Shown: positions 11,248-25,902, counted from the first letter of the stretch. The stretch: DNA of 64,000 nucleotides from Alphaproteobacteria bacterium (GCA_965262605.1 CBDHFN010000003.1:1105416-1169415), one strand, 5' to 3'. Notes: generated by a model from the letters alone, not told the origin. Numbers and translations: made by a program.

Positions 11248-11634
11248 AATTATATTATAACAAAAAACTGCGAAAATTGCAAGCGAATTGAATGTGGATA
11301 TTATCCAATTTTAAAATAAACTTTCTTCGTAAAAAGATTTAAAAGCAATTTAGGTAAACGATTCTGCATGCTTATTACTTTGTAGGCAACGGAATAATAG
11401 AGTTTTAAACCAAGCCATTAAATAATCTACGCGACACAAAGCAACTCACCAAGTTCCATGGTTTCAAGGGTGCTGTTAAGAATTATTTTTGCCCCCGCAA
11501 AAGGTTCGCACCAGACGGAATTATAGGCTTGATGGTCAAAATTGCGCAGTAATTCAACCCAATGTTTAAATGGTTCAAGCATAAAGCAATTTTGTTTGGT
11601 ATAAAATTGCCCAAGTTCAATTTTTTCCATAATT

Positions 11635-13191
11635 TCACCAAGTGCTTTGATTTTTAAGAATAATGGGTAATTCATTGGCGATTCGCTGGGTGACAATATC
11701 CCAATTATCCGTGATTTTATCTTGGCGAAATAATTTTAATGAATGATAAAATGGGCTTCTGTTTGAAGTTCCCCAACGCCAATCAGACGAATGACAAACG
11801 GCAATTAAACCCGGCTTGCCAAGCGCGCCCGCAATATGCCCGTTAATATTCGCAATGGACACAACCGCATCCATTGCGTCAATCATTGCGGTTAAGCCAT
11901 CAACATTTTCCCAAATATCAATTTCTTTGATACTATATAAAGTTAAACCTAATTCTTTTTGAATTTCAACGACTTCTTTGTTATTCATCAAATATTGCAC
12001 CGCAATTGGCACGCCCCCCGCATCATAAACAAGCTTGATTAAATCGCGAAGCGACATGTTGCGCCGATAAGCATTAGGTCCAATAGTAGACCAGCTTAAC
12101 CCAACCAAAGGCTTACCGCCACTGGCTTTAAGCATTGCATCGCGAATCGCATTTTTAAGCACAGGGTCTGATTTTAACCATGCTTTGCGTGGGTATATGA
12201 CATTATGCGGGGCTTGGCGCATTAAATCACCCATGGGAACATGGTGCAGGATATTTCGTTCTTTGAGCCAGCTGGCTGGGGGCATGGAATTAAGAACTTC
12301 AATTTGTGGGTAAGTGCGCTTGAAAATTGGTGCCATTTTTAAGCTTGGGGCTAGATAAAGGGGGGTTTTTGCTTTTAGCAATCGGTCAAGATGCGAACAG
12401 AAAATAATCTCATCGCCCAAACCTTGTTCGCGCCAAACAATAAGGGGAGGGCGCGCCTCGTCTGGTTCGTCTTGCGGATACCAATATGCAATATCTTCGT
12501 AAAAATCGGGCGGAGTTTCATGAAAATCAGGGGAACGCCATCGGCATGTATATTGCGCCCAACCTAAATCAAAATCACCACGAAACAAATGCAACATGGA
12601 CATATTGCCCAAAGTACGCCCTTCAAAGGGATTTAATGCCAAAGCCCGCGCGTAAGTTTTTTCAGAATCATCATACCGCAAAAAATCACGATATAATAAC
12701 CCCAAATTGCAACAAGTTGAAAAGCTGTTCGGACCAAATTTTAAGGCATTTTCATAGGCAACTAAGGCTTCGTCATACATTAAATTATTGCGTAATGATA
12801 ACGCATAATGAAACCAAATATCAGGATTCGTGGGAAATCGTTCTACGGCGATTTTGCCCACGGTGATGGCTTCTGATTCTTTTTTATTTTCCCGCAAAAC
12901 ATGAATATAAAACATCAACATTTCAATGGTCATGTTTTGCAACGGCATGAAATTTGACATTACTTCCAATGCTTTTTTTGACTCTTTCTTCGTCATATAT
13001 AATTGCGCAAGATTAGTGCGCGTGGCGTGCGAATCAAATCGCCGTTTTAAAATATCTTCGTATACTGCTTGGGCTTCTTCAAATTTATTTTCCATATGAA
13101 ACCGCACACCGCGTTCATGGTCCTTTACCACATCAGGTGGTATAGGATACGAAGTTGCTGCTTGTAATTTTTTTTCGGTTTTTCCATACAT
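11635..13191 (-). CDS. TPR-repeat plus GT9-like (heptosyltransferase-fold) glycosyltransferase
   Basis: N-terminal TPR repeats; C-half with a G-L-G-D motif (WREQGLGDEIIF) and a GT-B C-lobe pattern (NINGHIAGALGKPGLIAV). Confidence 0.6.
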   Translation of the reverse strand: MYGKTEKKLQAATSYPIPPDVVKDHERGVRFHMENKFEEAQAVYEDILKRRFDSHATRTNLAQLYMTKKESKKALEVMSNFMPLQNMTIEMLMFYIHVLRENKKESEAITVGKIAVERFPTNPDIWFHYALSLRNNLMYDEALVAYENALKFGPNSFSTCCNLGLLYRDFLRYDDSEKTYARALALNPFEGRTLGNMSMLHLFRGDFDLGWAQYTCRWRSPDFHETPPDFYEDIAYWYPQDEPDEARPPLIVWREQGLGDEIIFCSHLDRLLKAKTPLYLAPSLKMAPIFKRTYPQIEVLNSMPPASWLKERNILHHVPMGDLMRQAPHNVIYPRKAWLKSDPVLKNAIRDAMLKASGGKPLVGLSWSTIGPNAYRRNMSLRDLIKLVYDAGGVPIAVQYLMNNKEVVEIQKELGLTLYSIKEIDIWENVDGLTAMIDAMDAVVSIANINGHIAGALGKPGLIAVCHSSDWRWGTSNRSPFYHSLKLFRQDKITDNWDIVTQRIANELPIILKNQSTW

Positions 13192-13256
13192 AATATCAGA
13201 TTAATTTCATAATTCGCAATAAGTGTCAATAGTATTAATAAAATTTACTTTAAATA

Positions 13257-14423
13257 TTATGTTCTTTGAATCGTATAATTGCTTCTGAACGGCAACATGG
13301 TAATATTATCGGCAAATTTGTCAGAAATGTTATTTTGGCAATCTTGATATTGAGGTTTTGATTGAATTGCAAGATGCCAAAAATGTTGAGCAAGAATATC
13401 ATTGCCTTGCCATTGCTTGGCAATCGCGTAGTTATTGTATAAAGCAGCATCAATTTCGTTAGTTAATATCATGTTAAGTTTTTCATTGGCTAAAATCGGC
13501 AATCCCAAATTCAAGTAATTAACACCCATCGCGAAATGCGATAAATAAAATAAATCGCGCTGATAGCCTTGATGCACAAGCTTATCAATATCAGGTATTT
13601 TAGATAATTCATGCAAAATTTCGTTTGATTCGTGAAAATACCCGCAAAACTGCTTAAATGAACTTAAAATCCATAATTGCATCGGTTTAGGAATCATTGA
13701 TTGGCTTAATGTGTTTTTAACTTTATCAAAAGGTAATAATCGGTAATTATGGGTTAAATTACGCTTAATTAACGGAAATTTTGATGAAATTGAGCCGGGT
13801 TGATTGCGATATTCGTATAAAAAATCATCGCAATATGAAATTTTTGCATGATTTAAAATTGCTTGCAATTTAAAAAAATAATCCTCGCCAGAAAGAGAAT
13901 AGGGTGAAAATGGATATTTTCTGGCAAATTCCGTATTAAATCCATGGCAAATGGCGGTCGGTTGCCAATGGCGTTCAAATTCAAAATAAATACCATGGGG
14001 TTGTTTTATAAAATCCGCAATTTTAAAAGCCGAAATTGATTGATTGGCAATATCATTAATGGTAAAATTAGGGTAAATTAAATCGCATTCTTGTTCGGCA
14101 AAGATTTGCAAATAAGTTTCAGCCGCATGGGCGGGTAAAATATCATCACTATCAAGCCACATACCATATTTAGTTTGAATTTGATTAATCGCATATTGCC
14201 GCAAATGCCCCAATGAAACCCGTGTTGGAATTTTTTCAATGGTGCAATTGTGAAAATTACAATCGCGCACGATTTTCAATGTATCATCGGAACTTTGGTC
14301 GTCAATGATTAATATTTTTGCGACATTATTAGCAAAAGCCGATAATATGCTTTCTTTGATGGTTTTTTCGGCATTGCGCGCCACCATACATATCGTCATA
14401 TCATGGTGAATATTTTTCGTCAT
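13257..14423 (-). CDS. family-2 glycosyltransferase with C-terminal extension
   Basis: GT2 N-domain (ICMVARNAEKTI...ILIIDDQSSDDT...DSDD) followed by about 150 aa of helical repeat-like sequence. Confidence 0.7.
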   Translation of the reverse strand: MTKNIHHDMTICMVARNAEKTIKESILSAFANNVAKILIIDDQSSDDTLKIVRDCNFHNCTIEKIPTRVSLGHLRQYAINQIQTKYGMWLDSDDILPAHAAETYLQIFAEQECDLIYPNFTINDIANQSISAFKIADFIKQPHGIYFEFERHWQPTAICHGFNTEFARKYPFSPYSLSGEDYFFKLQAILNHAKISYCDDFLYEYRNQPGSISSKFPLIKRNLTHNYRLLPFDKVKNTLSQSMIPKPMQLWILSSFKQFCGYFHESNEILHELSKIPDIDKLVHQGYQRDLFYLSHFAMGVNYLNLGLPILANEKLNMILTNEIDAALYNNYAIAKQWQGNDILAQHFWHLAIQSKPQYQDCQNNISDKFADNITMLPFRSNYTIQRT

Positions 14424-16504
14424 TCTTTCAAATGCACAAACATGGCGGTAATATCATCGCTTTGGTCGTGTCCATTTACAAATTCTTCAATGGCGTGCAT
14501 CATAAAATTCATATTTTCGGCAACACCTTTGTTAAAATCAGTATTGTTTAGCACATTAAGCACGCGCGCTTCCCCAAATAATTCTTCGTTTTTGTTAAAT
14601 GCCTCGGTTACCCCATCAGTGAATAAGAATAATCGGTCGCCTTTATTAAATGGAATAGTAATTTGGCTATATTCAATGTCTGGCATGATAGCCGTCACTA
14701 AGTCACCCGTTGATTGCAAAAATTCAATATCCTTGCCGTTATTGCGGATAATTGCAGGCGGGTTATGCCCGGCATTACAATATTCAAATGTGCCATTTTT
14801 AAAATCTATAATGCCATAAAATAAGGTGACAAAAAAGTTATCTTGGTTATTCGCGGCTAATAAATTGTTGGATTTTTGCACGGTTTCTGCGGCAGTCGCG
14901 CAATTTTGCGCAAAAACTTGCAGCACGGTTTTAGAAACCATCATAAATAATGCCGATGGCACACCTTTGTCCGAGACATCGCCAACTAAGAATCCTAGGC
15001 GATTATCATCAATCATAAAATAATCATAAAAATCACCACCCACGGCTTTTGAAGGCTTTAACAGAGCTTGTAATTCAATTTTTTCATGGTTAAAGCTTGC
15101 GGCAGGAACATAAGAGAGCTGCACTCTTCTTGCTATATCAAGCTCCTTTTGTATAGCCATAAATCGCGTTTGCGTGGCAAGTGCCTCTTTTAATTCGTCA
15201 ATCACTTCATTTAATTTTGATTGTTTTGATATTAAGCTTGTGCCTAATTTGCGCAAAGTCAAAGCAAGCGAGCCAAGTTCGTTGTTTTTTTGATGGTCAT
15301 CAGGCGAATTAATGTTTTTTTCGTTTAAGTTATGAAAATGAAAACTTAACTCCATTTTATCAGTTTGGTCTAAAACATCGCTTAGCTTGAAAATTTCTTC
15401 CTTAATAATTTTTTCGGTTCTTAATCGTTGCTTGACGCGCGAACGGCGCACTAACCAAAGATCTAAAAGCTGCTCACGCAGAATTTCAATGGCATTAAGC
15501 ATTTTATTAATTTCTGGAGTTTTAATATTACTGGTAATAACATGCGACGCATCGCCCCTTGAAAGATTTTCCAATACATTTGTGCAAATTTCCAAAGGTT
15601 GCAATGATTTATACATAATATATCGGACAAACCAAAGGCATAAAAACATAATTAAGATAAAACTACCAGCATATGTATATTGCAAATATAAAATGTCTTT
15701 GCTATTTTCAGTAGTGTCTTTTAATAAAACTAAATATGTTTTTTGATTGTTAAATACCTTGTCCATGGGAATTGTCGTGGCTGTATAAGTATAATTGCCG
15801 TCTTTTAGGTCAATCAATCGGTGGTCGTTGTCAATTATAATGGAATTGGCAATGTTTTTCCATACTTGCGTATCAATGCCTTCAATAATTCCACCATTGC
15901 GATTAACAATATAAACATGAGATTGCGTTTGATTCGCCAGCAATTCCAAAATGCTAACGACTGATTCCGCAATAACACCAACCCCAACAACTTCATAATT
16001 TTTTTCATTAATTATGGGAAATATATAAGTTAAAAATAAATGGCGGTTTTCATTATAGCCAAAACCATATTCCGCGCTTTTTTGATTGAGAACTTTTTCA
16101 ATTAATTTCTCGCTTACCGGGCTTATCGGGTTAAGATTGGACGAAGAACGATATTCAATTTTTCGTTCCAAATTAAAAATTTCAATGAATTTCTTGCCAT
16201 GGTTCAAATCATTTTCTAATATAGATTTAGAAAATAATTCATTGATTTTTATGCTTTTATTGGTATCAGTATCATTGGTTAGAATTTTAGCAACTTCTTT
16301 ACCTAATTTATTAATAATTTGAATGTTAGCGTCAAGCTTGTTATTGGTAATTCTTCGCCATATTTGATTTTTATCCGAAACTATAGTTTCAGTGAATTTA
16401 TTTTTAAATAAATTTTCTTGGTAATTAAACATCAGATGATTTGCACCACTAAGGCTTATAATCATGAACATAAATACGATAGTGATTTTATTCGTAATGG
16501 TCAT
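14420..16504 (-). CDS. membrane sensor with periplasmic domain, HAMP and C-terminal PP2C (SpoIIE/RsbU-type) serine phosphatase
   Basis: Two TM helices flank a roughly 250-aa periplasmic domain; HAMP-like segment; C-terminal PPM motifs (GDFYDY...VGDVSDKGVPSALFM...FTDGVTEA...DDIT). Confidence 0.75.
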   Translation of the reverse strand: MTITNKITIVFMFMIISLSGANHLMFNYQENLFKNKFTETIVSDKNQIWRRITNNKLDANIQIINKLGKEVAKILTNDTDTNKSIKINELFSKSILENDLNHGKKFIEIFNLERKIEYRSSSNLNPISPVSEKLIEKVLNQKSAEYGFGYNENRHLFLTYIFPIINEKNYEVVGVGVIAESVVSILELLANQTQSHVYIVNRNGGIIEGIDTQVWKNIANSIIIDNDHRLIDLKDGNYTYTATTIPMDKVFNNQKTYLVLLKDTTENSKDILYLQYTYAGSFILIMFLCLWFVRYIMYKSLQPLEICTNVLENLSRGDASHVITSNIKTPEINKMLNAIEILREQLLDLWLVRRSRVKQRLRTEKIIKEEIFKLSDVLDQTDKMELSFHFHNLNEKNINSPDDHQKNNELGSLALTLRKLGTSLISKQSKLNEVIDELKEALATQTRFMAIQKELDIARRVQLSYVPAASFNHEKIELQALLKPSKAVGGDFYDYFMIDDNRLGFLVGDVSDKGVPSALFMMVSKTVLQVFAQNCATAAETVQKSNNLLAANNQDNFFVTLFYGIIDFKNGTFEYCNAGHNPPAIIRNNGKDIEFLQSTGDLVTAIMPDIEYSQITIPFNKGDRLFLFTDGVTEAFNKNEELFGEARVLNVLNNTDFNKGVAENMNFMMHAIEEFVNGHDQSDDITAMFVHLKE

Positions 16505-17514
16505 GGCAAATATCCAACTATCTTAAATTGCTTTAATTGCGTGTATGAAGGATATTCATTCAATGCTTTAACAGCTTTAATATTTAGGGTGGCGAAATAT
16601 TCACTTGGGTTATAAAATTTAATGCTTTGGGGCGGGATTTGCCGAAATAAAATATCTTCGGTAAGTTTGCCCGCCGATTTACCAATACCCGTTAAATTGG
16701 AAACAATGCCAAATAAAGCTTTGCCTTCAAGCAACGGCGTTTCATAGGTGCTGAATACTGGAATTTTTTGTAATGTCGCAAAATGTGTAAATTTTGCTTG
16801 ATTATCAATGATGAATTTATCGGTGCCTAAATAAATTACATCAACATTATTTATTTTTAACTCCTCAAAAATTTGCTCCATTGAAAATAAAGATGGTTTG
16901 CCGTTAATGTCTTGCCCAATTTTTGCCTCATGAAAATTAATATTTTGTTGCCGAAGTTTTGTGATTAATTCGGTTTTATTAAAAACTGAAATAGGGTCAT
17001 TGGGGTTATAAACTACGCCGACTTTGGTAAATTTTTTAAAATCAAATAAACTGCTTAATTGCAAATCAATGGGGGCAAAATTGCTAATTCCAACGATGTT
17101 TCGTTCGGAACTTAAATATGACGCAATAATGCCATACTCCACCGAATAAGGTAAATTTACAAAAATACCGGGAATATTGGTGATAAATTTGTCCGATTGA
17201 TTTTTGTAATCACTAATTGTGCCAAAAATTAATTTAGTCGCCTCCGCACCATTTGTATAAACAAAATCAGGGTTTAAAGATTTGATAATATTAACTAAAT
17301 TTGATGGGTTTTGTTGATAATCTCTTAACGAATATTGCGTAATTTTAGTCGCAATTCTTCGTAAATTTAAGTAATTTTCAAATCCCTTTTCAATATGCGT
17401 GGGTAAGTCTGGAATGACTTGGACGATGATAAATGGATCGTTAATATCGCCTTTTTTTGCCCAAGATAAATTAGGCAAATATACTAACGCAAGAATTAAT
17501 ATAAATTTAAACAT
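16501..17514 (-). CDS. periplasmic binding protein of the ABC_sub_bind/COG2984 family (no cognate permease or ATPase adjacent)
   Basis: Signal peptide MFKFILILALVYLPNLSWA; two-lobed binding-protein pattern. Confidence 0.55.
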   Translation of the reverse strand: MFKFILILALVYLPNLSWAKKGDINDPFIIVQVIPDLPTHIEKGFENYLNLRRIATKITQYSLRDYQQNPSNLVNIIKSLNPDFVYTNGAEATKLIFGTISDYKNQSDKFITNIPGIFVNLPYSVEYGIIASYLSSERNIVGISNFAPIDLQLSSLFDFKKFTKVGVVYNPNDPISVFNKTELITKLRQQNINFHEAKIGQDINGKPSLFSMEQIFEELKINNVDVIYLGTDKFIIDNQAKFTHFATLQKIPVFSTYETPLLEGKALFGIVSNLTGIGKSAGKLTEDILFRQIPPQSIKFYNPSEYFATLNIKAVKALNEYPSYTQLKQFKIVGYLP

Positions 17515-19582
17515 GAGCCACCTTGAAATGCCGATTGGTAAATAATAACCAAATTATCATCATACTTAAACAAATTAATAGGGTAATTAAGAAATTATTA
17601 ATTGTTGCAAAATCATAAAACAGCCCGCTTATTAAAACACAAATGATGGACATGCTATAAAAAGTTTTGGATTTTATGATGACGCATGCTTGGATTTTTT
17701 CTGGATTATCTTTGCATATTTTCATGATGGTTTTATTAAAATCATTGCTTAAAATCGTATAGCTTACGCCCCATAAAAATACAGCATAATAAATATACGA
17801 ATTGTGAAATAAAATTAAAATAATACCAATCATAATTGCCAAAATGCCGATAATAAATCGGTTGGCGTTTTGCAATTTATTCCATGAATTTAAATTTTGT
17901 ATATTTTTGAAACAAGCAAATCCTAAGGCGTATAAGCAAAAACATAAACCGATTTGCGTAAAACTTTGGCTGGTTTTGAATAAATATAACGGCATAAAAA
18001 ACAACATTAATGAATAGCTTATCATCTTAATAGGCATTTCTACGCTTAACAACATAGAATAAATTTGGAATTTTTCATATTTGCTTAAAATATTTTTGGT
18101 GCGCAAAAATATGTTGATATTATTGATTTTGATGGTTGGCAAATCAATAAAAATTAAATAAATAATTGCAAATAAAAATATTCCGCTCATAATAATAAAA
18201 ACACTATTCATGGATATATTATCGGCAATAATTCCCCCCAATAATGGCGAAATAGAAAATGCCATAATAATGTATTTTTTATATGAAAAATTATGGTTAT
18301 ATGGATTAATTTCTGAATTATTAATATATTGCATTATTGTTGAAATAATGATTCCAAAGCTTAAACCCATAAAAACTCTAATCAAGATAATATAAAATAA
18401 ATTATTTGCATAATAAAGAATTACACAAGAAGCAAGCAAGGCGAACAAGGAGCATATTAATATAGATTTTGGCGAATATCGCGCATATAAAATTTGCGTG
18501 TATTGTTGCCCAATAGTTTTCATGATTATGAAACCGATAAACATGATTGCGATTGCGCTGCCTTCATGAATTTGCCAATTTAATTGGCTGGGATTAATTA
18601 TAAATGTTGGCAATATACCAGCCATTAAACCAAAACCTGCAAAAATTAAAAACAATGGAATAATGAAAGTTTCTAATGAAAATAATTTTTCGGGTATTTC
18701 ATGACCAAGCTTGCTTGTTTTAATTTTTTCATTCATCTCGTCAAGTAAATTTGTTAAGGCAATACCCTTTTCGGGATCAATTTGCGATTCAACCGCTTCG
18801 TTAGTTTCTTGAATTATATCAATAAAATATTCATTCTTGTTTTTAACAAATTGATTAATTTGCTGGCTAAATTTACCAATTTCATCGGTTTGATTAATAA
18901 ATAAATATCGCGAATAATTGCCATTTTTTAATCGTTCAATAAAATTCAAAATAAACGAGATATTATTAATAATTTTGGAATTAATTGCCCAAAATGTAAA
19001 GCAAACTGAAAGCCACACGCTGATGAATATAATAAAAATTAACTCAAAACCTATTTGTTCTAAAATATAACTGAAAAAATTATCTTTTAAATAAATTTTA
19101 ACTTCGCCTTCTTTATTTTCGGTGGAATAATAATCAAAAACAAAATTTGGTTTATTTTGAAAATTAAATTGTTCGTTTTTTTGCACGAATTGTTTGATGA
19201 TTTCATCGTCAGCATTCGTGATGGCGATGGCATAAAATGTTGGATTTTTTGCAAAATAATTGATGATTTCTTGGTCAAATCCCTTGATTTTACTGATGTC
19301 AAGCCCGTAATAAGCATATTTTGATATATCATTGGAGATAGCAACCCCAGTAATTTGGGCATTATTTTTGATGGTTGTTTCAATTTGATTGACCACAATT
19401 GTGTATGAAAATAAAAAAACAAGAAATATTAACAGCGTGCAAATTACGGCTAATAAAATCTTGATTTTTTTATATGCGATTGCCAATATATCCCGTGACT
19501 TATCGTCTTTTAAAAAATCAATATCATTTTTGGCAAGCGGTAATAAATTTAAGCCATTTAAAAAAGCATGGAATTTTATCAT
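17507..19582 (-). CDS. membrane protein: sensor-like N-terminus (TM-periplasmic-TM-HAMP) fused to a roughly 12-TM MFS-like transporter domain
   Basis: 691 aa; HAMP-like helix pair after the second TM; C-terminal 400 aa of repeated TM helices with MFS-like loops. Confidence 0.5.
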   Translation of the reverse strand: MIKFHAFLNGLNLLPLAKNDIDFLKDDKSRDILAIAYKKIKILLAVICTLLIFLVFLFSYTIVVNQIETTIKNNAQITGVAISNDISKYAYYGLDISKIKGFDQEIINYFAKNPTFYAIAITNADDEIIKQFVQKNEQFNFQNKPNFVFDYYSTENKEGEVKIYLKDNFFSYILEQIGFELIFIIFISVWLSVCFTFWAINSKIINNISFILNFIERLKNGNYSRYLFINQTDEIGKFSQQINQFVKNKNEYFIDIIQETNEAVESQIDPEKGIALTNLLDEMNEKIKTSKLGHEIPEKLFSLETFIIPLFLIFAGFGLMAGILPTFIINPSQLNWQIHEGSAIAIMFIGFIIMKTIGQQYTQILYARYSPKSILICSLFALLASCVILYYANNLFYIILIRVFMGLSFGIIISTIMQYINNSEINPYNHNFSYKKYIIMAFSISPLLGGIIADNISMNSVFIIMSGIFLFAIIYLIFIDLPTIKINNINIFLRTKNILSKYEKFQIYSMLLSVEMPIKMISYSLMLFFMPLYLFKTSQSFTQIGLCFCLYALGFACFKNIQNLNSWNKLQNANRFIIGILAIMIGIILILFHNSYIYYAVFLWGVSYTILSNDFNKTIMKICKDNPEKIQACVIIKSKTFYSMSIICVLISGLFYDFATINNFLITLLICLSMMIIWLLFTNRHFKVAHV

Positions 19583-20349
19583 GATGAATTATCCGCAAAA
19601 TCTATGGCAAGCATTTTGTTGCGCCTATCCTTCATAAAAATTTCATGCGCCTCAAGTTTTTTATTAGTTTCTTCGTTAAATTCATGATATTCGCGGTTTA
19701 ATTTTTTATTATTGAGCAAATAAAAGCTGTTCGCCTGTTTGTTAATGCGTTGGATAGCGCCCGCAAAAAAATTATTGGAAAAATAAAAACTTAACATCAC
19801 AATAAAGATGATGATAATCATAAGAAAGATCGTTATTTTGTAAGTAATTTCCATAATTTTACCATTGTAAATATTTTGCGGATAAGACGCAAGAAGCACA
19901 CCAGCAAAATTCCCAGTATCGTCCTTTAATGTAATGCCAACATAATTCGTTGTATTGTTAGAAAATTTTGGAGTAATTTCATATTTAATTTTTGCAAGCC
20001 ATTCTTCTGGAATTTTTTCATTGATAAATGAAGTGTCGGTTGAATATATTGTGATTCCTTCGTTATTGATAATATCTATAGTTTGCACATCAACTAATTG
20101 CACTGATAAAGCATCAATCATATTGGCGATATTCGGGGTTTTATCCAATGATCCACCCGTGTTAAGCCATATTTGAAAATTATTATGGATTGATGATAAA
20201 TATACTAAATAATTTTCTTCAACGAATTTTTGTTCTAATTTTTCGTATTTTTTGGTCAAAACAACACCATAAATCATTAACCCAAAAATTAATGGCAAAG
20301 CAATAATAATTGCGATTTTATGGCTTATTTTATCAAAAATTTTATTCAT
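19579..20349 (-). CDS. membrane sensor-like protein lacking an output domain (TM, 150-aa periplasmic domain, TM, short coiled-coil tail)
   Basis: 256 aa, topology inferred from hydrophobic segments; first gene of the four-gene unit. Confidence 0.45.
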   Translation of the reverse strand: MNKIFDKISHKIAIIIALPLIFGLMIYGVVLTKKYEKLEQKFVEENYLVYLSSIHNNFQIWLNTGGSLDKTPNIANMIDALSVQLVDVQTIDIINNEGITIYSTDTSFINEKIPEEWLAKIKYEITPKFSNNTTNYVGITLKDDTGNFAGVLLASYPQNIYNGKIMEITYKITIFLMIIIIFIVMLSFYFSNNFFAGAIQRINKQANSFYLLNNKKLNREYHEFNEETNKKLEAHEIFMKDRRNKMLAIDFADNSS

Positions 20350-20434
20350 TATATAAATGGTTTCCTGCGGATATTACCAACCGCTAATAGTATATTTTAT
20401 TTATATATCAATGTCAAGAATGATTTAATTAAGT

Positions 20435-20463
20435 TTGCATATTGCGTTATTTTGTAGTATATT
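20435..20463 (+). promoter_or_regulatory. sigma70-like promoter for sseA (TTGCAT-17-TATATT)
   Basis: TTGCAT at 20435-20440 and TATATT at 20458-20463; RBS AAGGAG at 20484-20489. Confidence 0.4.
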
Positions 20464-20494
20464 AACGGCTTTGATAATGATGCAAGGAGACACC

Positions 20495-21304
20495 ATGAAA
20501 AATACCATAACCGCATTTGAATTAAATGAAATATTAAACCAAGAAAATTTAATTATTATTGATTCCAGTTGGCATTTGCCCCAAGCAAAGCGCAATGCTT
20601 ATCAAGAATATTGCGAATCGCATATTAAAGGCGCGATTTTTTATGACATTGACGCACATTCGCGCCAAGATACACCATTGCCACATATGCTTTTGCCGTT
20701 TGAAGAATTGCAAATTAATATTCAAGAAATCGGCATTCAAGCTGATTCGCGCGTGGTAATTTATGATTCTGTCGGTATTTTTTCATGCGCAAGATTATGG
20801 TATATTTTAAAATCGCATGGGTTTAAAAGCGTTCAAGTTTTAAATGGCGGTTTGCCTGCTTGGGTTGCGGGGGGATTTGCGATGGAAAAAACAATAAATA
20901 ATCCCAAAGCCACAATGGAGAAAATTCTGAAAAAATCAAATTATATCAAAGATAAAAAATTCATTGATGATGCTAAAAATCATGATAATTGGTTGATAAT
21001 TGATGCAAGGTCAAGCGATAGATTCCATAGCCGAGTGCCCGAACCGCGCCCCAATACCCGAAGTGGCCATGTAGATGGCGCGATAAATATTCCGTATAAT
21101 CAAGTGCTTAATGCCGATGGGTGCTTAAAAAATCCAGACGAATTACATAAAATTTTTGCGGGCAAGGAATTTGACAAAGAAATTATCGTTTATTGTGGCT
21201 CTGGTATAACGGCTGCTGTTATATTGCTCGCGCTTGAATCAATTGGCAAACAAGCTTATTTATACGATGGCTCTTGGTCGGAATATGGTTTAATCACTGC
21301 TTGA
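20495..21304 (+). CDS. sseA: 3-mercaptopyruvate/thiosulfate sulfurtransferase (tandem rhodanese domains)
   Basis: Two rhodanese domains, active-site loop CGSGITAAV. Start taken at the ATG at 20495 after AAGGAG; the ORF-track start at 20435 is probably too early. Confidence 0.8.
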   Translation: MKNTITAFELNEILNQENLIIIDSSWHLPQAKRNAYQEYCESHIKGAIFYDIDAHSRQDTPLPHMLLPFEELQINIQEIGIQADSRVVIYDSVGIFSCARLWYILKSHGFKSVQVLNGGLPAWVAGGFAMEKTINNPKATMEKILKKSNYIKDKKFIDDAKNHDNWLIIDARSSDRFHSRVPEPRPNTRSGHVDGAINIPYNQVLNADGCLKNPDELHKIFAGKEFDKEIIVYCGSGITAAVILLALESIGKQAYLYDGSWSEYGLITA

Positions 21305-22058
21305 CGCGCCAGCCGATTTTTAATAAATAATATCCAAAAATCATGCAAATAAGGGTAATTGGCAGGAAAATATATAAAATGCTGAAATCAAATTGATTGA
21401 AAAACCACGCATTTTTGACATTGGTAAGTAATAAATAAATGGGATTATAATCCAATAAGAATTGATATTCTGTTAAAACGGCTTCTTTGGTAAAAAAAGT
21501 TCCCGATAATAAAAATAAAGGGGTCATTAAAATCATGTCAATGCGGGCTAAATGGTCCCATTTATCCGCCCAGAACATTGAAAAAATTGCGATGCTGGAA
21601 AACGCGCCGATTAAAATAACAATCAAAAAATAAATATATAAAATAGCAAGCAAGCTGGGCATGGGCATGCCCAATATTAAAATCAAAATAATGACCGGCG
21701 TCGCTGTAAACAGCGCGCTGATAAGCCCATCATAATAAATAGTTAGCAACCATATAAAAGGGTGCATGGGTGATGCTAAATAATCGTCAATTACTTTTTC
21801 TAATTTATAATAAAACATGGTGTAAGCAACATGTTCATAGGCGCGCTGGCAATGTAAAATTGTCCATAAATTTAGCCCAATAATTAAAGATAATGGTTGC
21901 AAATATAAGGGGTCTTGGGTATCGCCGATATAACGAAACACAAAAATAAATAATATGGCATTTATTAAATTTACTAAGCCCCAAGTAGGAGCTTCTAATA
22001 ATTCCAAAGTTTTAGCCCAGCAAATTGCTTTGAAAGTAATGAATTGTTTGCTAAGCAT
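21294..22058 (-). CDS. ABC-2 type transporter permease
   Basis: Six-TM ABC-2 pattern; start taken at the Met 3 nt after the upstream stop (22056-22058). Confidence 0.5.
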   Translation of the reverse strand: MLSKQFITFKAICWAKTLELLEAPTWGLVNLINAILFIFVFRYIGDTQDPLYLQPLSLIIGLNLWTILHCQRAYEHVAYTMFYYKLEKVIDDYLASPMHPFIWLLTIYYDGLISALFTATPVIILILILGMPMPSLLAILYIYFLIVILIGAFSSIAIFSMFWADKWDHLARIDMILMTPLFLLSGTFFTKEAVLTEYQFLLDYNPIYLLLTNVKNAWFFNQFDFSILYIFLPITLICMIFGYYLLKIGWRVKQ

Positions 22059-22060
22059 GC

Positions 22061-22858
22061 TTAATTTTTTAATTTCCAACCTGAATTTAATACTAAGATA
22101 ATAATGGTGATTAAAATTAAATCTAAACTGCTTAAAACGGCGATGCCAATCCATGGGTTAGTATCGCTTGTCCCCAAAAAACCATAACGAAACCCATCAA
22201 TCATAAAGAAAAACGGATTAACATGGCTGATGACTTGCATATAATCAGGTAAGTTTTTAATGGAATAAAATGTGCCGCTTAAAAAAATCAAGGGCGTGAT
22301 GAGAAAATTGACAAAAGCATTTAAATGGTCAAATTTTTGCGCCCATATCGCGCCAAATAAACCCAAAGAGCCCATCCAAAGCGAACCTAAAACGGCAAAA
22401 GCCAAGACAAAACCAATTTTTTGTGGATATATTGGCGCAAGAAATAATAAAGGAATCCAGCAAGAAATGCCAACAAATATTCCCCGTGTGATGCCTGAAA
22501 GCAACAATCCCCCCGCCATTTCCGCCGAATTAATCGGTGGCATTAAAAAATCAACAATATTGCCTTGCACTTTGGATACCATAATCGCCGAAGATACTGA
22601 TACAAAAGAGTTATTGGCGATGGTCATAATTAAAATGCCCGGTGCTAAAAATAACTGCACTGCATTAAAATCTTCGCTTGTGCCTGTATGCTTTAACGCC
22701 AAAGAAAAAACGATAAAATATAATAAATTTGTAACCGAAGGTCCCAATAAAGTTTGCGTCCAAATATTTGTAAATCGCCTTACTTCCTTGAAATAAAGCG
22801 TGCGAAAGCCAATAAAGTTGAAGTTTTTAAATTTTAATGGTTCGTTATAGCCGTTCAT
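22061..22858 (-). CDS. ABC-2 type transporter permease (NodJ/YadH-like)
   Basis: 265 aa with an ABC-2 membrane-domain pattern. Confidence 0.6.
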   Translation of the reverse strand: MNGYNEPLKFKNFNFIGFRTLYFKEVRRFTNIWTQTLLGPSVTNLLYFIVFSLALKHTGTSEDFNAVQLFLAPGILIMTIANNSFVSVSSAIMVSKVQGNIVDFLMPPINSAEMAGGLLLSGITRGIFVGISCWIPLLFLAPIYPQKIGFVLAFAVLGSLWMGSLGLFGAIWAQKFDHLNAFVNFLITPLIFLSGTFYSIKNLPDYMQVISHVNPFFFMIDGFRYGFLGTSDTNPWIGIAVLSSLDLILITIIILVLNSGWKLKN

Positions 22859-22932: not shown

Positions 22933-23643
22933 TTAATGCCCGCCTTCAAGATAAGCAGCTTTAATGGCTGGATTGCTCAATAATTCTTCGCCAGTGCCAG
23001 TAAGGGTAATTTCGCCATTCACAAGCACATAGCCGCGGTGGGCTAATTTTAAAGCGTGATGGGCATTTTGTTCAACCAAAAGCACCGTCATTTTTTTGCG
23101 TTCATTAATTTCCTTGATGGCTTGAAAAATTTGCCTGACAATAATTGGTGCTAAGCCAAGCGATGGTTCGTCAAGCAATAAAATTTTTGGCTCACTCATT
23201 AACGCGCGGGCAATGGCAAGCATTTGCTGTTCCCCGCCTGATAAAGTGCCACCACGCTGGGATTGGCGTTCTTTTAATCTTGGGAATAAATGATAAATTT
23301 CATCAAGTTTTGCGTTGAAATTTTTGGGGTCGGCGAATAACGCGCCAAGCTGTAAATTCTCATATACCGTGAGTTTAGAGAATATCCTTCTGCCTTCGGG
23401 GGATATTGCCAAACCTTGCTTAACAATTTCATTGGGTTTTTGGGTTGTAATATCTTTGTCATATAATTTAATTGAACCATTGCGCGCATGAACTACTCCG
23501 CAAATCGTCATTAATAATGTTGATTTTCCCGCACCATTTGCACCGATAAGCGAGACAATTTCGCCTTCGTTAACTTGGCAAGAAACATTCTTCAGTGCTT
23601 GAATTGAACCATAAAATGAATCTATATTGGCGATATTAAGCAT
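22933..23643 (-). CDS. livF: branched-chain amino acid (HAAT family) ABC transporter ATP-binding protein LivF
   Basis: Walker A GANGAGKST, signature LSGGEQQM, Walker B LLLDEPS. Start set at MLNIANI, 2 nt after the livG stop. Confidence 0.85.
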   Translation of the reverse strand: MLNIANIDSFYGSIQALKNVSCQVNEGEIVSLIGANGAGKSTLLMTICGVVHARNGSIKLYDKDITTQKPNEIVKQGLAISPEGRRIFSKLTVYENLQLGALFADPKNFNAKLDEIYHLFPRLKERQSQRGGTLSGGEQQMLAIARALMSEPKILLLDEPSLGLAPIIVRQIFQAIKEINERKKMTVLLVEQNAHHALKLAHRGYVLVNGEITLTGTGEELLSNPAIKAAYLEGGH

Positions 23644-23644
23644 G

Positions 23645-24430
23645 TTATTCCTCTTCCCCCAAATAAGCAGCAATGACTTTGGGGTTATTTTTGACAGAAT
23701 CAGCATCACCTTCGGCAATTTTTTTGCCATAATCCAAAACAATAATGCGGTCTGAAATTTTCATAACCACGGACATATCATGCTCAATTAACAAAATGCT
23801 TACTTTATAATCATTTTTAATTTTAATTAAATATTCGTTTAATTCTAAGGATTCCTTGGGGTTTAGCCCCGCCGCAGGTTCATCAAGGCAGAGGATTTTT
23901 GGCTTAGTCGCCAAGGCGCGGGCAATTTCTAATCTTCTTTGGTCGCCATATGGTAATGAACCCGCTTCATCATCAGCGCGGTCATATAAACCGATTAATT
24001 TTAAAGACTCCATCGCTTCATCAACGGCATTTTTTTCGGCTTTTTTCCATGATTTTAAGCCTAATAAGCCCAAAATGCTAAAACCTGACGCGCGCATTAA
24101 TTCATTATGCCTTGCGACTAAAATATTTTCCAGCACCGTCATTTTGTTAAATAAACGAATATTTTGAAAAGTCCGCGCCACTTTTGCCTTTGATGCAACC
24201 ATATAAGACGGCATTTGTTCAAGATAATGTTTTTTATCGCCATGCAGCGTGATTCTGCCAATCGTGGGGGAATAAAACCCGGTAATGCAGTTAAATAAAG
24301 TTGTTTTGCCCGCACCATTTGGTCCAATTATCGCGGTAATTTCCCCCGCCATTGCTTGAAATGATACATCATCAACTGCCGTAATACCGCCAAATTTCAT
24401 GGTTAAATGTTCGGTTTCAAGGATAATCAT
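23645..24430 (-). CDS. livG: HAAT-family ABC transporter ATP-binding protein LivG
   Basis: Walker A GPNGAGKTT, an LivG-specific insertion, Walker B LCLDEPAAG. Confidence 0.85.
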   Translation of the reverse strand: MIILETEHLTMKFGGITAVDDVSFQAMAGEITAIIGPNGAGKTTLFNCITGFYSPTIGRITLHGDKKHYLEQMPSYMVASKAKVARTFQNIRLFNKMTVLENILVARHNELMRASGFSILGLLGLKSWKKAEKNAVDEAMESLKLIGLYDRADDEAGSLPYGDQRRLEIARALATKPKILCLDEPAAGLNPKESLELNEYLIKIKNDYKVSILLIEHDMSVVMKISDRIIVLDYGKKIAEGDADSVKNNPKVIAAYLGEEE

Positions 24431-25902
24431 GATTTTTTCCCCAATAATTTACCAATCAAGGGTAATGAATTTTTTGGGGTAAAAAAGCTTACCGATGGTT
24501 CGCGGTGCGAAATTAACCCTTGGGGTCTGAAAATCATAATAACGACAAGCCCTAAACCAAAACTTACCATGCGGTATTCGGCTAAGTCGCGAAAAACTTC
24601 GGGCAGTCCGATTAAGGCAATCGCCGCCAACGCAACCCCTGTAAGCGAGCCCATGCCGCCCATTACGACAATCGCTAAGATAATTGCTGATTCAATGTAA
24701 GCAAAGCTTTCTGGGCTAACAAATCCTTGTCTTGTCGCAAAAAATGCGCCCGCAAATCCGCCCCACATTGCCGAAATTGCGAATGCCGCCAATTTGATAT
24801 TCGTGCGGTTAATTCCCAATGAAGCCGATGCTAAATCATCTTCGCGAAGTGCCTCCCATGCGCGTCCAATAGGTAATTTACGAATCCGCACGGTGAAAAT
24901 CGCCACCAGCATTGCCATCGTGAAAATTAAATAATATAAGAAAATTATCCGTTGGTCTGATGAATATTCAATGCCAAAAAATTCGGCGAAACTTGGTAAA
25001 CCATTTTTACCTTGGGGCGCAAACACAGCTAAGCCAAAGAAATCTGGACGCGCGATGGAGCTTATACCACCTGCACCATGTGTAAATGAAGTCCAATTAA
25101 TGATAATAACCCTGATAATTTCACCAAAACCCAAGGTGACAATGGCGAAATAATCGCCCCTTAACTTTAACACGGGAAAGCCTAAAATTAAGCCACCCAA
25201 TGCCGCAAATAACCCTGATAATGGCAAGCATAACCAAAAACTTAACCCCAATGTTGTTGATAAAATCGCGTAAGTATATGCCCCAATCGCGTAAAACGCA
25301 ACATAGCCTAAATCTAATAAACCTGCATAACCAACGATAATATTTAAGCCCCAAGCCAACATGACATATGTAAATATTAAGGTGCTGACATCCAAAACAT
25401 ACCGATTCGCAAACGGCATAAAAGGAAGAAATAATGCAAAAATTACCACAAATATAGAAATAAATTGCGTATATTTACGCAATTTTGCTTCACGAATTTC
25501 CTTTGATTTGTCTAATTGTGCTTGGGTTATATGTCTTGAAGCCCTTGACAAGCCAATTGCCGACTTAATCGCCAATAATATTGACCCGCCAATTAAAATT
25601 ACTCGCAATAATTCAAATGGAATTGGAAACAAGAACCCCGCAACACCAATTATTATGCTTGCGCTTAAAACAGATTTATGATAGGCGTGCCTATCTAAAA
25701 TTAATCCCAACCTGCCAATAACCACAAATACCAACGCCCATAATGCTTGAATATAGCGTGGTTCAATTTCAATGCCAGTTACTTTATCAACCGCTTTAAG
25801 CGCAAGAATCGGGTATAATAAAAGACAAGAAATACCAGCAATCGCGCCCAACTCACGCAATACTTCGCCCCAATTTAATTTGCCGTTTGCCGTATTATTC
25901 AT
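24427..25902 (-). CDS. livM: HAAT-family ABC transporter permease LivM (with N-terminal extension)
   Basis: LivM-type permease core with extra N-terminal TM helices. Confidence 0.8.
   Translation of the reverse strand: MNNTANGKLNWGEVLRELGAIAGISCLLLYPILALKAVDKVTGIEIEPRYIQALWALVFVVIGRLGLILDRHAYHKSVLSASIIIGVAGFLFPIPFELLRVILIGGSILLAIKSAIGLSRASRHITQAQLDKSKEIREAKLRKYTQFISIFVVIFALFLPFMPFANRYVLDVSTLIFTYVMLAWGLNIIVGYAGLLDLGYVAFYAIGAYTYAILSTTLGLSFWLCLPLSGLFAALGGLILGFPVLKLRGDYFAIVTLGFGEIIRVIIINWTSFTHGAGGISSIARPDFFGLAVFAPQGKNGLPSFAEFFGIEYSSDQRIIFLYYLIFTMAMLVAIFTVRIRKLPIGRAWEALREDDLASASLGINRTNIKLAAFAISAMWGGFAGAFFATRQGFVSPESFAYIESAIILAIVVMGGMGSLTGVALAAIALIGLPEVFRDLAEYRMVSFGLGLVVIMIFRPQGLISHREPSVSFFTPKNSLPLIGKLLGKKS

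Follow-up and report, generated by a model that had tools for sequence, protein, structure and literature searches.

HAMP domains couple membrane sensors to cytoplasmic enzymes or to the signalling domains of chemoreceptors. UhpC is an MFS-type receptor that works with the kinase UhpB, and CbrA, CrbS, and MxtR are kinases fused to a sodium/solute-symporter domain. LuxP-LuxQ and TorT-TorS are membrane sensors that depend on a binding protein. Other binding-protein-dependent sensors are Tar, which works with maltose-binding protein, and CtpL, which works with PstS; the ligands of the solved ABC_sub_bind proteins are L-Trp, L-Tyr, or L-Phe (PMC10443332). In partner switching, chlamydial RsbU is a membrane-bound sensor phosphatase of the PP2C type (PMC11619594). 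The Cache_heme-HAMP (CHH) receptor binds a Ser/Thr kinase that is a separate protein, and signals in this way (bioRxiv 10.64898/2026.05.25.727664).

We analysed 64,000 nt of DNA from an Alphaproteobacteria bacterium (GCA_965262605.1, CBDHFN010000003.1:1105416-1169415; this whole stretch is called the window). One of its genes encodes a divergent member of a widespread protein family that combines a TM helix, an (s)Cache-like sensor, a second TM helix, HAMP, and a 12-TM MFS domain. We propose that a transporter fold is here used in, or coupled to, signal transduction, as in UhpC and the CbrA-type kinases ("transceptors" or "trigger transporters"). However, UhpC has no HAMP or sensor fusion, and in the CbrA type an N-terminal transporter feeds a cytoplasmic kinase on the same chain, whereas here the transporter comes last, after sensor and HAMP, and the enzyme is a protein of its own. 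Like the binding-protein-dependent sensors, the locus places a solute-binding protein without its own ABC permease beside PAS/Cache-like membrane proteins; systems of the LuxQ, TorS, and Tar type are built on a homodimeric kinase or chemoreceptor, whereas the partners here are a heterologous pair, a small 2-TM protein and the HAMP-MFS protein. A membrane phosphatase in the same operon has the TM, periplasmic domain, TM, HAMP, PP2C layout of RsbU/SpoIIE-type proteins and Pseudomonas SiaA, but the described partner-switching systems lack a HAMP-MFS protein, a 2-TM paralogue, and ABC_sub_bind. The CHH receptor is a precedent for a 2-TM Cache receptor that has no enzymatic output of its own and works by physically associating with a separately encoded signalling enzyme; it differs in its haem c sensor, in its soluble kinase with helical repeats, and in having no MFS or binding protein (bioRxiv 10.64898/2026.05.25.727664). 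Full-text searches of the literature returned no publication that describes this gene cluster or a fusion of HAMP with MFS; one candidate from the literature, KpsrMFS, was set aside because it concerns unrelated genes. The features of the window are compiled in Table 1.

Table 1. Position, strand, and supporting evidence of the features described in the text.
Feature	Position (nt)	Strand	Evidence
Sigma-70-like promoter match, TTGACA-17-TATACT	20389..20417	(-)	Consensus match, about 40 nt upstream of first operon gene
Small 2-TM protein, 256 aa	19579..20349	(-)	Hydropathy topology, orthologues, hhalign
Sensor-HAMP-MFS protein, 691 aa	17507..19582	(-)	Uninterrupted ORF, Pfam, hydropathy, AF2, Foldseek
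Periplasmic sensor domain, residues 59-181	19040..19408	(-)	AF2 secondary structure, homologue Cache matches
HAMP-like module (residues about 201-266) and helical linker (267-305)	18668..18982	(-)	Profiles, AF2, homologues
12-TM MFS domain, residues 306-691, DHA1-like	17510..18667	(-)	Pfam MFS_1, Foldseek, column/HMM comparison
ABC_sub_bind (PF04392) periplasmic binding protein, 337 aa, Sec signal peptide	16501..17514	(-)	Pfam E = 1.7e-16
Membrane PP2C phosphatase, 694 aa	14420..16504	(-)	SpoIIE PF07228 E = 4.5e-46; RssB, SiaA phosphatase matches
GT2 glycosyltransferase with C-terminal helical repeat region, 388 aa	13257..14423	(-)	Pfam Glycos_transf_2 E = 3.9e-14

The ATG of the sensor-HAMP-MFS gene overlaps the stop codon of the upstream small gene (ATGA), and at about 29% GC we calculate the chance of 691 open codons at ~4e-26. 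AlphaFold2 (AF2) models the protein with a pLDDT of 87.6 and a pTM of 0.86, and a hydropathy scan gives the same topology: a cytoplasmic N terminus (residues 1-39), TM1 (40-58), a Cache/PAS-like periplasmic alpha/beta domain, TM2 (182-200), a HAMP-like helix-connector-helix linker with an extra helix to about residue 286, and an MFS domain of the DHA1 type with 12 TM helices between residues 304 and 689. The two methods therefore concur on the architecture proposed in an earlier note on this DNA, a 2-TM sensor and HAMP segment followed by a full MFS fold instead of an enzyme. That note also asked for a check for a frameshift that could have joined two genes. We regard as negligible the possibility that a frameshift or assembly error merged a sensor gene with two TM helices and an independent MFS gene. 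An independent assembly has the same single ORF with the same neighbours at 32% identity, hundreds of unrelated contigs carry the single ORF as well (340 metagenomic stretches), the junction (the linker) is among the conserved stretches of the protein, and the AF2 model is confident across it; we found no evidence in favour of a frameshift. Given that the single ORF is conserved in hundreds of loci, the gene is not a frameshift or sequencing fusion.

In the AF2 model, the sensor domain consists of a long helix (residues 27-91), a short helix (102-112), and a four-stranded sheet (116-123, 128-133, 147-152, and 157-165). A long N-terminal helix and an antiparallel sheet between two TM helices constitute a single-Cache/PAS-like layout. 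No Pfam Cache family matched the sensor domain of the window protein; at the same position, sCache_3_2 was matched in 8 of 70 homologues and dCache_1 in 1 of 70, and one variant of the family matches sCache_3_3.

The HAMP-like module follows TM2 directly and has the helix-connector-helix form of ~50 aa: in the AF2 model the TM2 helix continues as far as residue 219, residues 220-233 form a connector that includes a short strand, and a second helix spans 234-266. Pfam HAMP (PF00672) fell below threshold in the window protein, with no match at E <= 0.1. The protein weakly matched the TM2-HAMP region of the NCBIfam models for BaeS and WalK (E = 3e-4), Pfam HAMP was found at the aligned position in 18 of 70 homologues at E <= 1e-3 (several above the 25-bit cut-off), the family profile matched the histidine-kinase HAMP construct 9trk_A with E = 1e-12, and hhalign gave 96.4% probability for an alignment of the HAMP segment to that of the neighbouring PP2C protein. 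A HAMP domain after the second TM helix, as the earlier note had it, is thus supported by homology, but it lies at about residues 201-266 rather than 230-290. The linker that follows is conserved and contains the motif QETNEAxESQIDP.

The C-terminal half matches a transporter fold by both sequence and structure. Pfam MFS_1 (PF07690) covers residues 311-622 with 55.9 bits (cut-off 33.4), and the best Foldseek matches in the PDB are NorA, MdfA, SotB, and VMAT, with target TM-scores of 0.82-0.86. The twelve helices (304-318, 340-368, 371-391, 395-421, 427-455, and 458-478 in the first bundle; 501-536, 541-563, 572-592, 594-622, 627-656, and 662-689 in the second) have the two-bundle MFS arrangement with the N terminus in the cytoplasm; because HAMP is cytoplasmic, MFS TM1 enters the membrane from inside. 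The C-terminal 386 aa therefore share the 12-helix fold of the DHA1 antiporters, and the family profile matches NorA with E = 1e-23. DHA1 pumps, however, have no N-terminal sensor-HAMP module, paralogous 2-TM partner, or binding protein.

A family search returned 223 representatives at E <= 1e-3; among the best 150 of these, 105 are 640-780 aa long, and the layout in the 80 representatives whose topology we inspected is mostly like that of the window protein. Over the 70 members scanned with Pfam, MFS_1 was found in 70/70, together with the HAMP and sCache_3_2 matches given above. With mainstream members as queries, the word-indexed protein search found at least 210 clusters at E <= 1e-60; it was productive only with such queries, returning 2 matches with the window protein and 5 with the 70-sequence alignment. 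The window protein is 13-21% identical to family members and 32% identical to P0002, the second member of its lineage, and the HMM of the mainstream family aligns its residues 37-631 with 207.8 bits, in the same domain order. Databases name the family only "MFS transporter", "MFS permease/HAMP domain-containing protein", or "arabinose efflux permease".

The small protein encoded upstream consists of TM1, a Cache/PAS-like periplasmic domain of ~140 aa, and TM2, followed by a helical tail of ~65 aa in the cytoplasm. It has no Pfam match above threshold, its relatives yield only sub-threshold Cache/ArlS_N matches, and pairwise BLASTP finds no similarity between the 256-aa and 691-aa proteins. However, an hhalign profile-profile comparison matched it to the N-terminal module of the family at 98.8% probability (E = 7e-17, 183 columns). 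On the strength of this comparison we consider the small protein an ancient and remote paralogue of the sensor module; the earlier note had already called the gene paralogous. Duplication and domain loss, which the note suggested, is not supported as a local event: the small gene is an ancient obligatory partner, and it, or its fusion to the sensor-HAMP-MFS gene, is present in 66/66 loci with at least 850 nt of upstream sequence. The window copy is 41% identical to its L001 orthologue and matches those of L005, L003, and L004 with E = 3e-20, 3e-13, and 1e-8.

In about ten to twenty cluster representatives, the small protein is fused N-terminally to sensor-HAMP-MFS; these variants of 925-1013 aa carry both proteins in one chain, and 2/2 loci checked lacked a separate small gene. 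AF2 of the concatenated window pair gave a pTM of 0.82, with the same order of secondary structure in both sensor modules and a low-confidence cytoplasmic tail in the small protein. When unpaired small proteins were added to the concatenated query, MAFFT placed them on the paralogous second module, and that alignment was dropped. The profile scan detected no HAMP in the small partner proteins, and a heterodimeric HAMP bundle with the small protein is therefore unsupported, the more so given the low-confidence tail. In this respect the small partner differs from the CHH system, where the kinase binds the HAMP of the receptor (bioRxiv 10.64898/2026.05.25.727664).

The family and both of its partner genes, the small gene upstream and ABC_sub_bind downstream, are conserved over proteobacterial and Desulfobacterota lineages and in marine, sediment, and soil metagenomes. 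ABC_sub_bind follows the family gene in 65/66 loci with at least 1100 nt downstream, and the window has both flanking genes. The first three genes stand together in essentially all loci examined, whereas the fourth varies among PP2C, Ser/Thr kinase, and class III cyclase. Full-length orthologues of the window PP2C protein occur in L001 and L004-L006, and STAS and/or RsbW-like kinase genes lie near PP2C in five loci: L005, L028, and L085 have both next to the PP2C orthologue, and L004 and L006 have one of them (in L004 a STAS gene is present, and the PP2C carries a fused kinase domain). Other loci carry Pkinase-dCache_1-HAMP or dCache_1-HAMP-cyclase proteins. Some complete or long loci have the three genes with no adjacent signalling enzyme (for example Beggiatoa L003, L012, and L030; also L016 and L039). 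The triad can thus stand alone, as would be expected of a regulated transporter no less than of a co-sensor.

Within the window, the genes for the small protein, the MFS protein, the binding protein, and PP2C overlap by 4-8 nt (the binding-protein gene starts 8 nt before the MFS gene ends and joins the PP2C gene by an ATGA overlap), and the operon, as read from these junctions, is translationally coupled, with the sensor-HAMP-MFS gene second. The promoter candidate matches 11/12 hexamer positions and is the best site in 11000-20700, but it is no more than a match to the consensus, and sigma-70-like sites as a whole are not more numerous than the shuffled expectation. Between the binding protein and its orthologues identity is 25-43%, and the protein weakly matches TrpX. 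No ABC permease (BPD_transp_2) or ATPase gene is present in the window operon, and none lies beside the binding protein in the annotated related loci L003-L008. A LIV-type ABC system is encoded 5.4 kb away within the window, in a separate transcription unit. Downstream of PP2C, the GT2 gene is joined by another ATGA overlap and is probably co-transcribed with the operon; its membership of the system is uncertain, and it was not seen downstream of PP2C in L004-L006 or conserved in the other loci seen.

The PP2C protein consists of a TM helix, a dCache-like periplasmic domain of ~250 aa, a second TM helix, HAMP, a coiled linker, and a SpoIIE/PP2C domain (residues 499-691). Its N-terminal 426 aa are homologous to the N-terminal parts of the class III cyclases of L031 and L045 (BLASTP 9e-11, profile 6e-61), and the same sensor chassis carries different outputs. 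Related loci resemble partner-switching systems in having STAS and RsbW-like kinase genes beside PP2C, whereas the window has the phosphatase (SpoIIE) but no STAS or RsbW-like (HATPase_c_2) gene within its 64 kb, as searched by tblastn with sequences from related loci.

The operon adds context beyond the earlier note: translational coupling with ABC_sub_bind and a dCache-HAMP-PP2C protein argues for signalling. Because its conserved operon also encodes a binding protein and a phosphatase of signalling, the sensor-HAMP-MFS protein is more likely to serve in signal sensing than as an ordinary pump. An ordinary DHA1-type efflux pump extended at its N terminus by a membrane segment, or a gene undergoing decay in a reduced genome, in either case with no sensory role, would agree with the database names, with multidrug pumps as best structural matches, and with the small (1.72-Mb contig), AT-rich genome in which the MFS part is drifting. 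We consider this improbable: the architecture and both partner genes are conserved across the lineages and environments listed above, the ORF is intact in both lineage members (the window protein and P0002), and the parts best conserved between these two are the sensor (58% identity) and the HAMP/linker (44%), which is the opposite of what a functionless appendage would show.

The MFS domain, in comparison, is only 20-22% identical between the window protein and P0002. In the mainstream family, identity runs the other way, with 34.6% in the MFS, 23% in the periplasmic domain, and 20% in the HAMP/linker. Mainstream members retain motifs A, B, and C of transporters; preserved in the consensus of the family are motif A, the Arg of TM4, and the "GP..GG" antiporter motif of TM5. 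In most family members, judging from these sequences, the MFS is probably a real ligand-regulated transporter, so that transport and signalling would be coupled (a "transceptor"). Column and HMM comparison indicates that the window MFS keeps the fold-defining Pro and Gly residues but has lost most charged residues conserved in the family. Motif A (G-x-x-x-D-R-x-G-R-K/R, TM2-TM3 loop) is absent, reading LYARYSPKS against the consensus sDRvGaRr, whereas P0002 keeps ERMGFR at this position. In motif C (G-x-x-x-G-P-x-x-G-G, TM5), the window has FSISPLLGGIIAD against the consensus aicGPaIGGiLAD, keeping Pro, Gly-Gly, and Ala-Asp, with the first Gly changed to Ser. In the window protein, uncharged residues replace the conserved Arg that precedes MFS TM1, Glu-Glu and an Arg within TM1, the motif A Asp, the TM8 Arg, and R-x-x-E-R of TM11. 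It differs from DHA1 pumps in that this Asp and most of the conserved charges in the membrane are missing.

The earlier note offered a sensor that gates a transporter and a transporter-like receptor as alternatives. The loss of charged residues in the window lineage favours a transporter-like receptor or scaffold over a sensor that gates an active transporter, and we consider it most likely, from the residues retained and lost, that the MFS of this lineage is not an active pump. The charge loss could instead reflect an altered substrate or AT-driven drift. In a gated transporter, the sensor and binding protein would open and close an active MFS exporter or importer through HAMP, with PP2C, kinase, and cyclase co-regulated but not physically coupled to it. 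HAMP signals normally run from the N-terminal to the C-terminal neighbour, which places the MFS in the output position, and the retained motifs and strong MFS conservation of mainstream members, together with the long loci that have no adjacent enzyme, agree with such a transporter. Nevertheless, we judge this explanation rather unlikely as the whole account, given the least-conserved, charge-depleted MFS of the window lineage, the translational coupling to the PP2C gene, and the recurrence of a neighbouring dCache-HAMP enzyme with three outputs, which co-regulation alone explains poorly. In addition, we know of no MFS transporter that depends on a periplasmic binding protein.

An even call, in our estimation, is that the window proteins form a co-sensor module for a partner-switching phosphatase, in which the MFS would act as a transporter-like receptor or scaffold; the contacts among them are suggested by gene order and fusion. 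Building on the architecture, fold, family size, synteny, fusion, paralogy, and conservation pattern observed here, we infer every protein-protein contact, the ligand, and the direction of the signal in the following mechanism. The binding protein would take up a periplasmic ligand and dock on the paired periplasmic domains of the small and HAMP-MFS proteins. A conformational change would then pass via TM2 and the HAMP/linker into the MFS domain, and the dCache-HAMP phosphatase would read the state of the assembly through membrane or HAMP-HAMP contacts. This would set how active the phosphatase is toward a phospho-STAS substrate of partner switching, the gene for which would lie elsewhere in the genome.

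A broader reading, which we advance tentatively and with the balance somewhat against it, is that the small protein, sensor-HAMP-MFS, and ABC_sub_bind form an undescribed, portable "co-sensor" complex for dCache-HAMP enzymes, with an MFS fold in the HAMP output position. The outputs of these enzymes would be interchangeable (a PP2C phosphatase of partner switching, a Ser/Thr kinase, or a class III nucleotide cyclase), and the transporter of the window lineage would be a signalling-only pseudo-transporter.

A large family with a 12-helix transporter fold as the HAMP output would extend the range of domains that HAMP controls, and it would provide a natural system in which a four-helix-bundle signal is passed to a polytopic membrane domain. 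If the broader reading is true, it would represent a new mode of coupling solute binding or transport to bacterial signalling. The fixed 2-TM paralogue and orphan binding protein, and the recurrent pairing with PP2C, kinase, or cyclase on a related sensor chassis, point to a reusable sensing module hidden under the annotation "MFS transporter". The drifting MFS of the window lineage would be a natural experiment that parts the signalling role from the transport role. Given that all four genes are kept intact in a small, AT-rich genome, the pathway may well matter to the lifestyle of this bacterium.

We found that the sensor-HAMP-MFS protein combines a periplasmic sensor-like domain, a HAMP-like segment and twelve transporter helices in one uninterrupted ORF, and that a hydropathy scan and an AlphaFold2 (AF2) model made with 70 homologues in the input (mean pLDDT 87.6, pTM 0.86) agree on its layout. 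The earlier note had described a HAMP-like segment followed by MFS-like helices and no enzyme, which is correct according to the topology, the Pfam MFS_1 match (residues 311 to 622, 55.9 bits versus a cut-off of 33.4) and the fold. Among solved structures, the C-terminal half most resembles the DHA1 antiporters NorA, MdfA, and SotB, plus VMAT, with target TM-scores of 0.82 to 0.86; none of the structural matches is a solved chain spanning the entire protein. Both sequence and fold place the C-terminal half in the MFS.

The HAMP assignment depends on homology. Pfam detects no HAMP domain in the window protein itself, and its matches to the TM2-HAMP segments of BaeS and WalK are weak (E = 3e-4). 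Of 70 family members, 18 match Pfam HAMP at the aligned position (E ≤ 1e-3), and several of these matches exceed the 25-bit cut-off. The family profile matches the histidine-kinase HAMP construct 9trk_A (E = 1e-12), and the segment aligns with the HAMP domain of the neighboring PP2C phosphatase at 96% probability in a profile alignment. On these grounds, we read the middle segment as homologous to HAMP, and presumably HAMP-like in its working, though it lies below the Pfam threshold in the window copy. HAMP had been placed at approximately residues 230 to 290; its presence stands, but its position is slightly more N-terminal (201 to 266).

A word-indexed search returned only the window protein itself and one homologue, P0002 (701 aa, 32% identity over 96% of the length), which has the same neighbor genes in an independent assembly. 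Contig numbers in the P0002 assembly exceed 900,000, and we take it to be a eukaryote host assembly; the window bacterium and the P0002 bacterium may both be host-associated. All housekeeping proteins that we looked up are singletons at 90% identity on a 1.72-Mb contig. An exhaustive profile search found 223 cluster representatives at E ≤ 1e-3, and 105 of the best 150 of these are 640 to 780 aa long. Among 80 representatives with topology, most show a TM helix, a loop of approximately 100 to 150 aa, a TM helix, a linker of approximately 90 to 135 aa, and the MFS domain. When mainstream members, that is, those outside the lineage of the window protein and P0002, were used as queries, at least 210 clusters were recovered at E ≤ 1e-60. 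Among the named sources are Beggiatoa alba, B. leptomitoformis, Thioflexithrix, Lacisediminimonas, Lacibacterium, and Desulfonatronum, and a metagenome scan found 340 stretches encoding the family in marine, sediment, and soil samples. Two representatives depart from the usual plan: P0087 (1117 aa) has a C-terminal extension with DUF5939 after the MFS domain, and in P0084 (1035 aa) the usual sensor is replaced by a Cache_3-Cache_2/sCache_3_3 sensor.

The earlier note had also raised the possibility that a frameshift joined two ancestral genes. We found no frameshift. The calculated chance of 691 open codons occurring at random at ~29% GC is ~4e-26, the linker over the sensor/MFS junction is conserved among homologues and confidently modeled by AF2, and the same architecture in P0002 and hundreds of homologues excludes a fusion of this kind. 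That the protein is an artefact is scarcely credible.

The sensor-HAMP-MFS gene stands second in a minus-strand operon of at least four, and probably five, genes, with overlaps of 4, 8, 4, and 4 nt between successive stop and start codons. The best promoter-like site of the region, a consensus match only, lies ~40 nt upstream of the first gene. The operon region from 16000 to 20000 is more AT-rich than the window (GC 0.28 to 0.30 versus an average of ~0.36). We searched 88 fetched loci, a few of them near-duplicates, with one profile per partner and made counts from the resulting table. All 66 loci with 850 nt or more of sequence upstream have the small gene or its fusion, and of 66 loci with 1100 nt or more downstream, 65 have the ABC_sub_bind gene. 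The small-paralogue gene, the HAMP-MFS gene, and the binding-protein gene form a triad whose synteny is obligatory. Binding proteins from six loci (the window, L001, L003, and L004 to L006) share 25 to 43% identity.

Features of the operon, its surroundings and the sensor-HAMP-MFS protein
Feature	Position	Strand	Remarks
Gene 1: small 2-TM protein	19579-20349	-	256 aa, no Pfam family
Gene 2: sensor-HAMP-MFS protein	17507-19582	-	691 aa (691 codons)
Cytoplasmic N-terminus	residues 1-39		basic; hydropathy + AF2
TM1	residues 40-58		hydropathy + AF2
Periplasmic alpha/beta domain	residues 59-181		long helix, short helix, four strands; single-Cache/PAS sensor-like
TM2	residues 182-200		continuous into helix-connector-helix
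Helix-connector-helix (HAMP-like)	residues 201-266		AF2 + hydropathy
Additional conserved helix	up to residue ~286		AF2
Twelve MFS TM helices	residues 304-689		hydropathy + AF2
Gene 3: ABC_sub_bind (PF04392) binding protein	16501-17514	-	337 aa, secreted
Gene 4: TM-periplasmic domain-TM-HAMP-SpoIIE/PP2C phosphatase	14420-16504	-	694 aa
Gene 5: GT2 glycosyltransferase with helical-repeat tail	13257-14423	-	4-nt overlap with PP2C gene
TPR protein	11635-13191	-	518 aa, next after GT2 gene
Possible FliO (sub-threshold match), then FliP	9047-10139	-	beyond TPR gene
ABC-2-type permease ORFs	21294-22154, 22061-22858	-	94-nt overlap
LIV-type importer, two ATPases	22933-24430	-
LIV-type importer, two BPD_transp_2 permeases	24427-26807	-
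RTX protein	27191-29503	+	770 aa; calcium-binding nonapeptide repeats (HemolysinCabind, E = 4e-24)
ORF	39919-42231		also 770 aa
tRNA-Met (CAT)	2900-2975	+	sole Rfam/ARAGORN match in 64 kb

The gene order from the glycosyltransferase to FliP may link the phosphatase to flagellar or surface glycosylation; this arrangement was not seen downstream of the PP2C gene in L004 to L006. Upstream of the operon, the start of the downstream ABC-2-type ORF was probably misassigned by the mechanical ORF call. The LIV-type ABC importer has no adjoining binding-protein gene, and the sole such gene seen near it is the ABC_sub_bind gene of the operon, 5.4 kb away. ABC_sub_bind proteins normally work with BPD_transp_2-type permeases, and a dual use of this protein by importer and signaling operon is conceivable; other loci do not conserve this arrangement.

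The upstream gene had been proposed to be a paralogue of the sensor that arose by duplication and domain loss. BLASTP gave no match between the two window proteins, and the small proteins form a separate family. Within it, the window member shares 41% identity with the L001 orthologue, and its matches to the orthologues from L005, L003, and L004 have E values of 3e-20, 3e-13, and 1e-8. Profiles of the small-protein family and of the HAMP-MFS N-terminal module nevertheless align over 183 columns covering TM1, the periplasmic domain, and TM2 (98.8% probability, E = 7e-17). Because of this profile-profile alignment, we consider the paralogy to be real but, as judged from the sequences, ancient; a local duplication followed by loss does not hold. 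Secondary-structure elements follow the same order in both sensor modules in the AF2 model described below. We detected no HAMP domain in the small proteins, and the tail of the window member is modeled with low confidence.

In representatives of 925 to 1013 aa, the first ~230 residues correspond by homology to the small protein (shown directly for nine), so these variants carry the small protein and the sensor-HAMP-MFS protein in one chain. Two of them, P0056 and P0280, come from Desulfonatronum. At two fusion loci, the separate small gene is absent and the binding-protein gene is still next. These fusions are Rosetta-stone evidence suggesting that the two proteins work together. When the window pair was joined head to tail like the natural fusions, AF2 gave a pLDDT of 83.8 and a pTM of 0.82, the latter lending indirect support to a defined arrangement of the modules.

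The fourth partner is variable. PP2C orthologues follow the triad in the window, L001, L004 to L006, L028, L065, L073, and L085; those of the first five loci are full-length orthologues with 26 to 53% identity. Genes for STAS and/or RsbW-like kinase proteins, a partner-switching set, lie beside PP2C in L004, L005, L006, L028, and L085. The operon phosphatase is of the SpoIIE/RsbU type, and a search found no STAS or RsbW gene within the 64-kb window, from which a complete partner-switching set is absent. Roughly two dozen loci, mostly soil-derived, have a Ser/Thr kinase; in six checked by Pfam, it is an adjacent, divergently transcribed gene encoding Pkinase-TM-dCache_1-TM-HAMP. Class III cyclases occur in approximately ten loci (three checked by Pfam are dCache_1-HAMP-Guanylate_cyc), and an NtrY-like histidine kinase gene precedes one fusion locus. 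Over its first 426 residues, the window PP2C protein shows end-to-end homology to the initial ~425 residues of the L031 and L045 cyclases (BLASTP 9e-11, profile 6e-61), so the same sensor chassis carries different outputs. Coupling of the triad to dCache-HAMP enzymes is recurrent. Some long loci (L003, L012, L016, L030, and L039) have the triad with no such enzyme nearby. The main rival explanation, a purely ligand-gated transporter whose enzyme neighbors are only co-regulated, has to be weighed against both observations, and we regard it as possible but rather doubtful.

Some loci carry more than one set. In L031 (2105-6942, minus strand) and L045 (2136-6942, minus strand), a second, divergent set adjoins the canonical triad and encodes a small 2-TM protein, a 633-aa HAMP-MFS relative without any Pfam match (family HMM E = 7e-50), and a dCache_1-HAMP-class III cyclase. 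Here too, a transporter part beside a signaling enzyme would have diverged beyond recognition. In L065 and L073, two pairs of small gene and HAMP-MFS gene, in opposite orientation, flank a single PP2C gene and RsbW-like gene, and L065 lacks the binding-protein gene, which in L073 is displaced.

The window protein and P0002 are 58% identical in the periplasmic domain, 44% in HAMP and linker, and ~20% in each MFS half, whereas 34 mainstream members show the opposite order (MFS 34.6%, periplasmic domain 23%, HAMP/linker 20%). Set beside these figures, an ordinary pump carrying a functionless appendage appears quite improbable. We compared residues column by column and confirmed the losses with an independent HMM alignment. 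In the window MFS domain, the TM4 Arg and the Pro and Gly residues that define the fold are kept. Motif A was not recognized in it, and uncharged residues replace the conserved Arg before TM1, the TM1 Glu-Glu and Arg, the motif A Asp, the Arg after motif C, the TM8 Arg, an Asp of the loop after TM8, and the R-x-x-E-R of TM11. Most of these losses are common to P0002. This pattern is as expected for a transporter fold kept in a structural or signaling role with transport chemistry relaxed, and the window protein appears to be a divergent copy with a relaxed transporter domain; a substrate change or AT-driven drift could also have removed the charges.

We propose that the ABC_sub_bind protein would capture a periplasmic ligand; in solved ABC_sub_bind proteins, the ligands are aromatic amino acids (PMC10443332). 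It would then dock onto a pair of periplasmic domains, one from the small protein and one from the HAMP-MFS protein, and a conformational change would reach the MFS domain by way of TM2 and the HAMP/linker. Depending on its state, this assembly would modulate the adjacent dCache-HAMP-PP2C phosphatase, whose substrate would be a phospho-STAS protein encoded beyond the window. In the window lineage, the MFS domain would most likely act as a receptor-like scaffold. The mainstream MFS domain probably still transports, and therefore transport and signaling would be coupled there. We give this composite reading, a binding-protein-fed triad modulating PP2C with the MFS domain a transporter in the mainstream and a scaffold here, about an even chance of being right.

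Transporter-linked sensing is known from UhpC and CbrA-type fusions, and LuxPQ and TorTS are binding-protein-dependent sensors. Tar with MBP and CtpL with PstS also depend on binding proteins (PMC10443332), and an output-less Cache-HAMP receptor signals by binding a separate kinase (bioRxiv 10.64898/2026.05.25.727664). These are the nearest functional concepts to the window module, but a transporter fold at the HAMP output, a 2-TM paralogue as partner, and the window gene set are missing from all of them. Database annotations call family members "MFS transporter" or "arabinose efflux permease," and the architecture is not unseen, because automatic annotation (JGI) already records the HAMP and MFS composite. 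We found no description of the family or gene cluster in full-text literature, a coverage that leaves out most subscription journals and makes this absence of evidence only, and found no sign that the context and likely role of the family had been described before. The core idea of the earlier note, a sensor-HAMP module joined to a transporter domain, holds, with architecture, fold, and family confirmed; the fuller picture, for which we found no published study, is of a conserved multi-protein sensing module.
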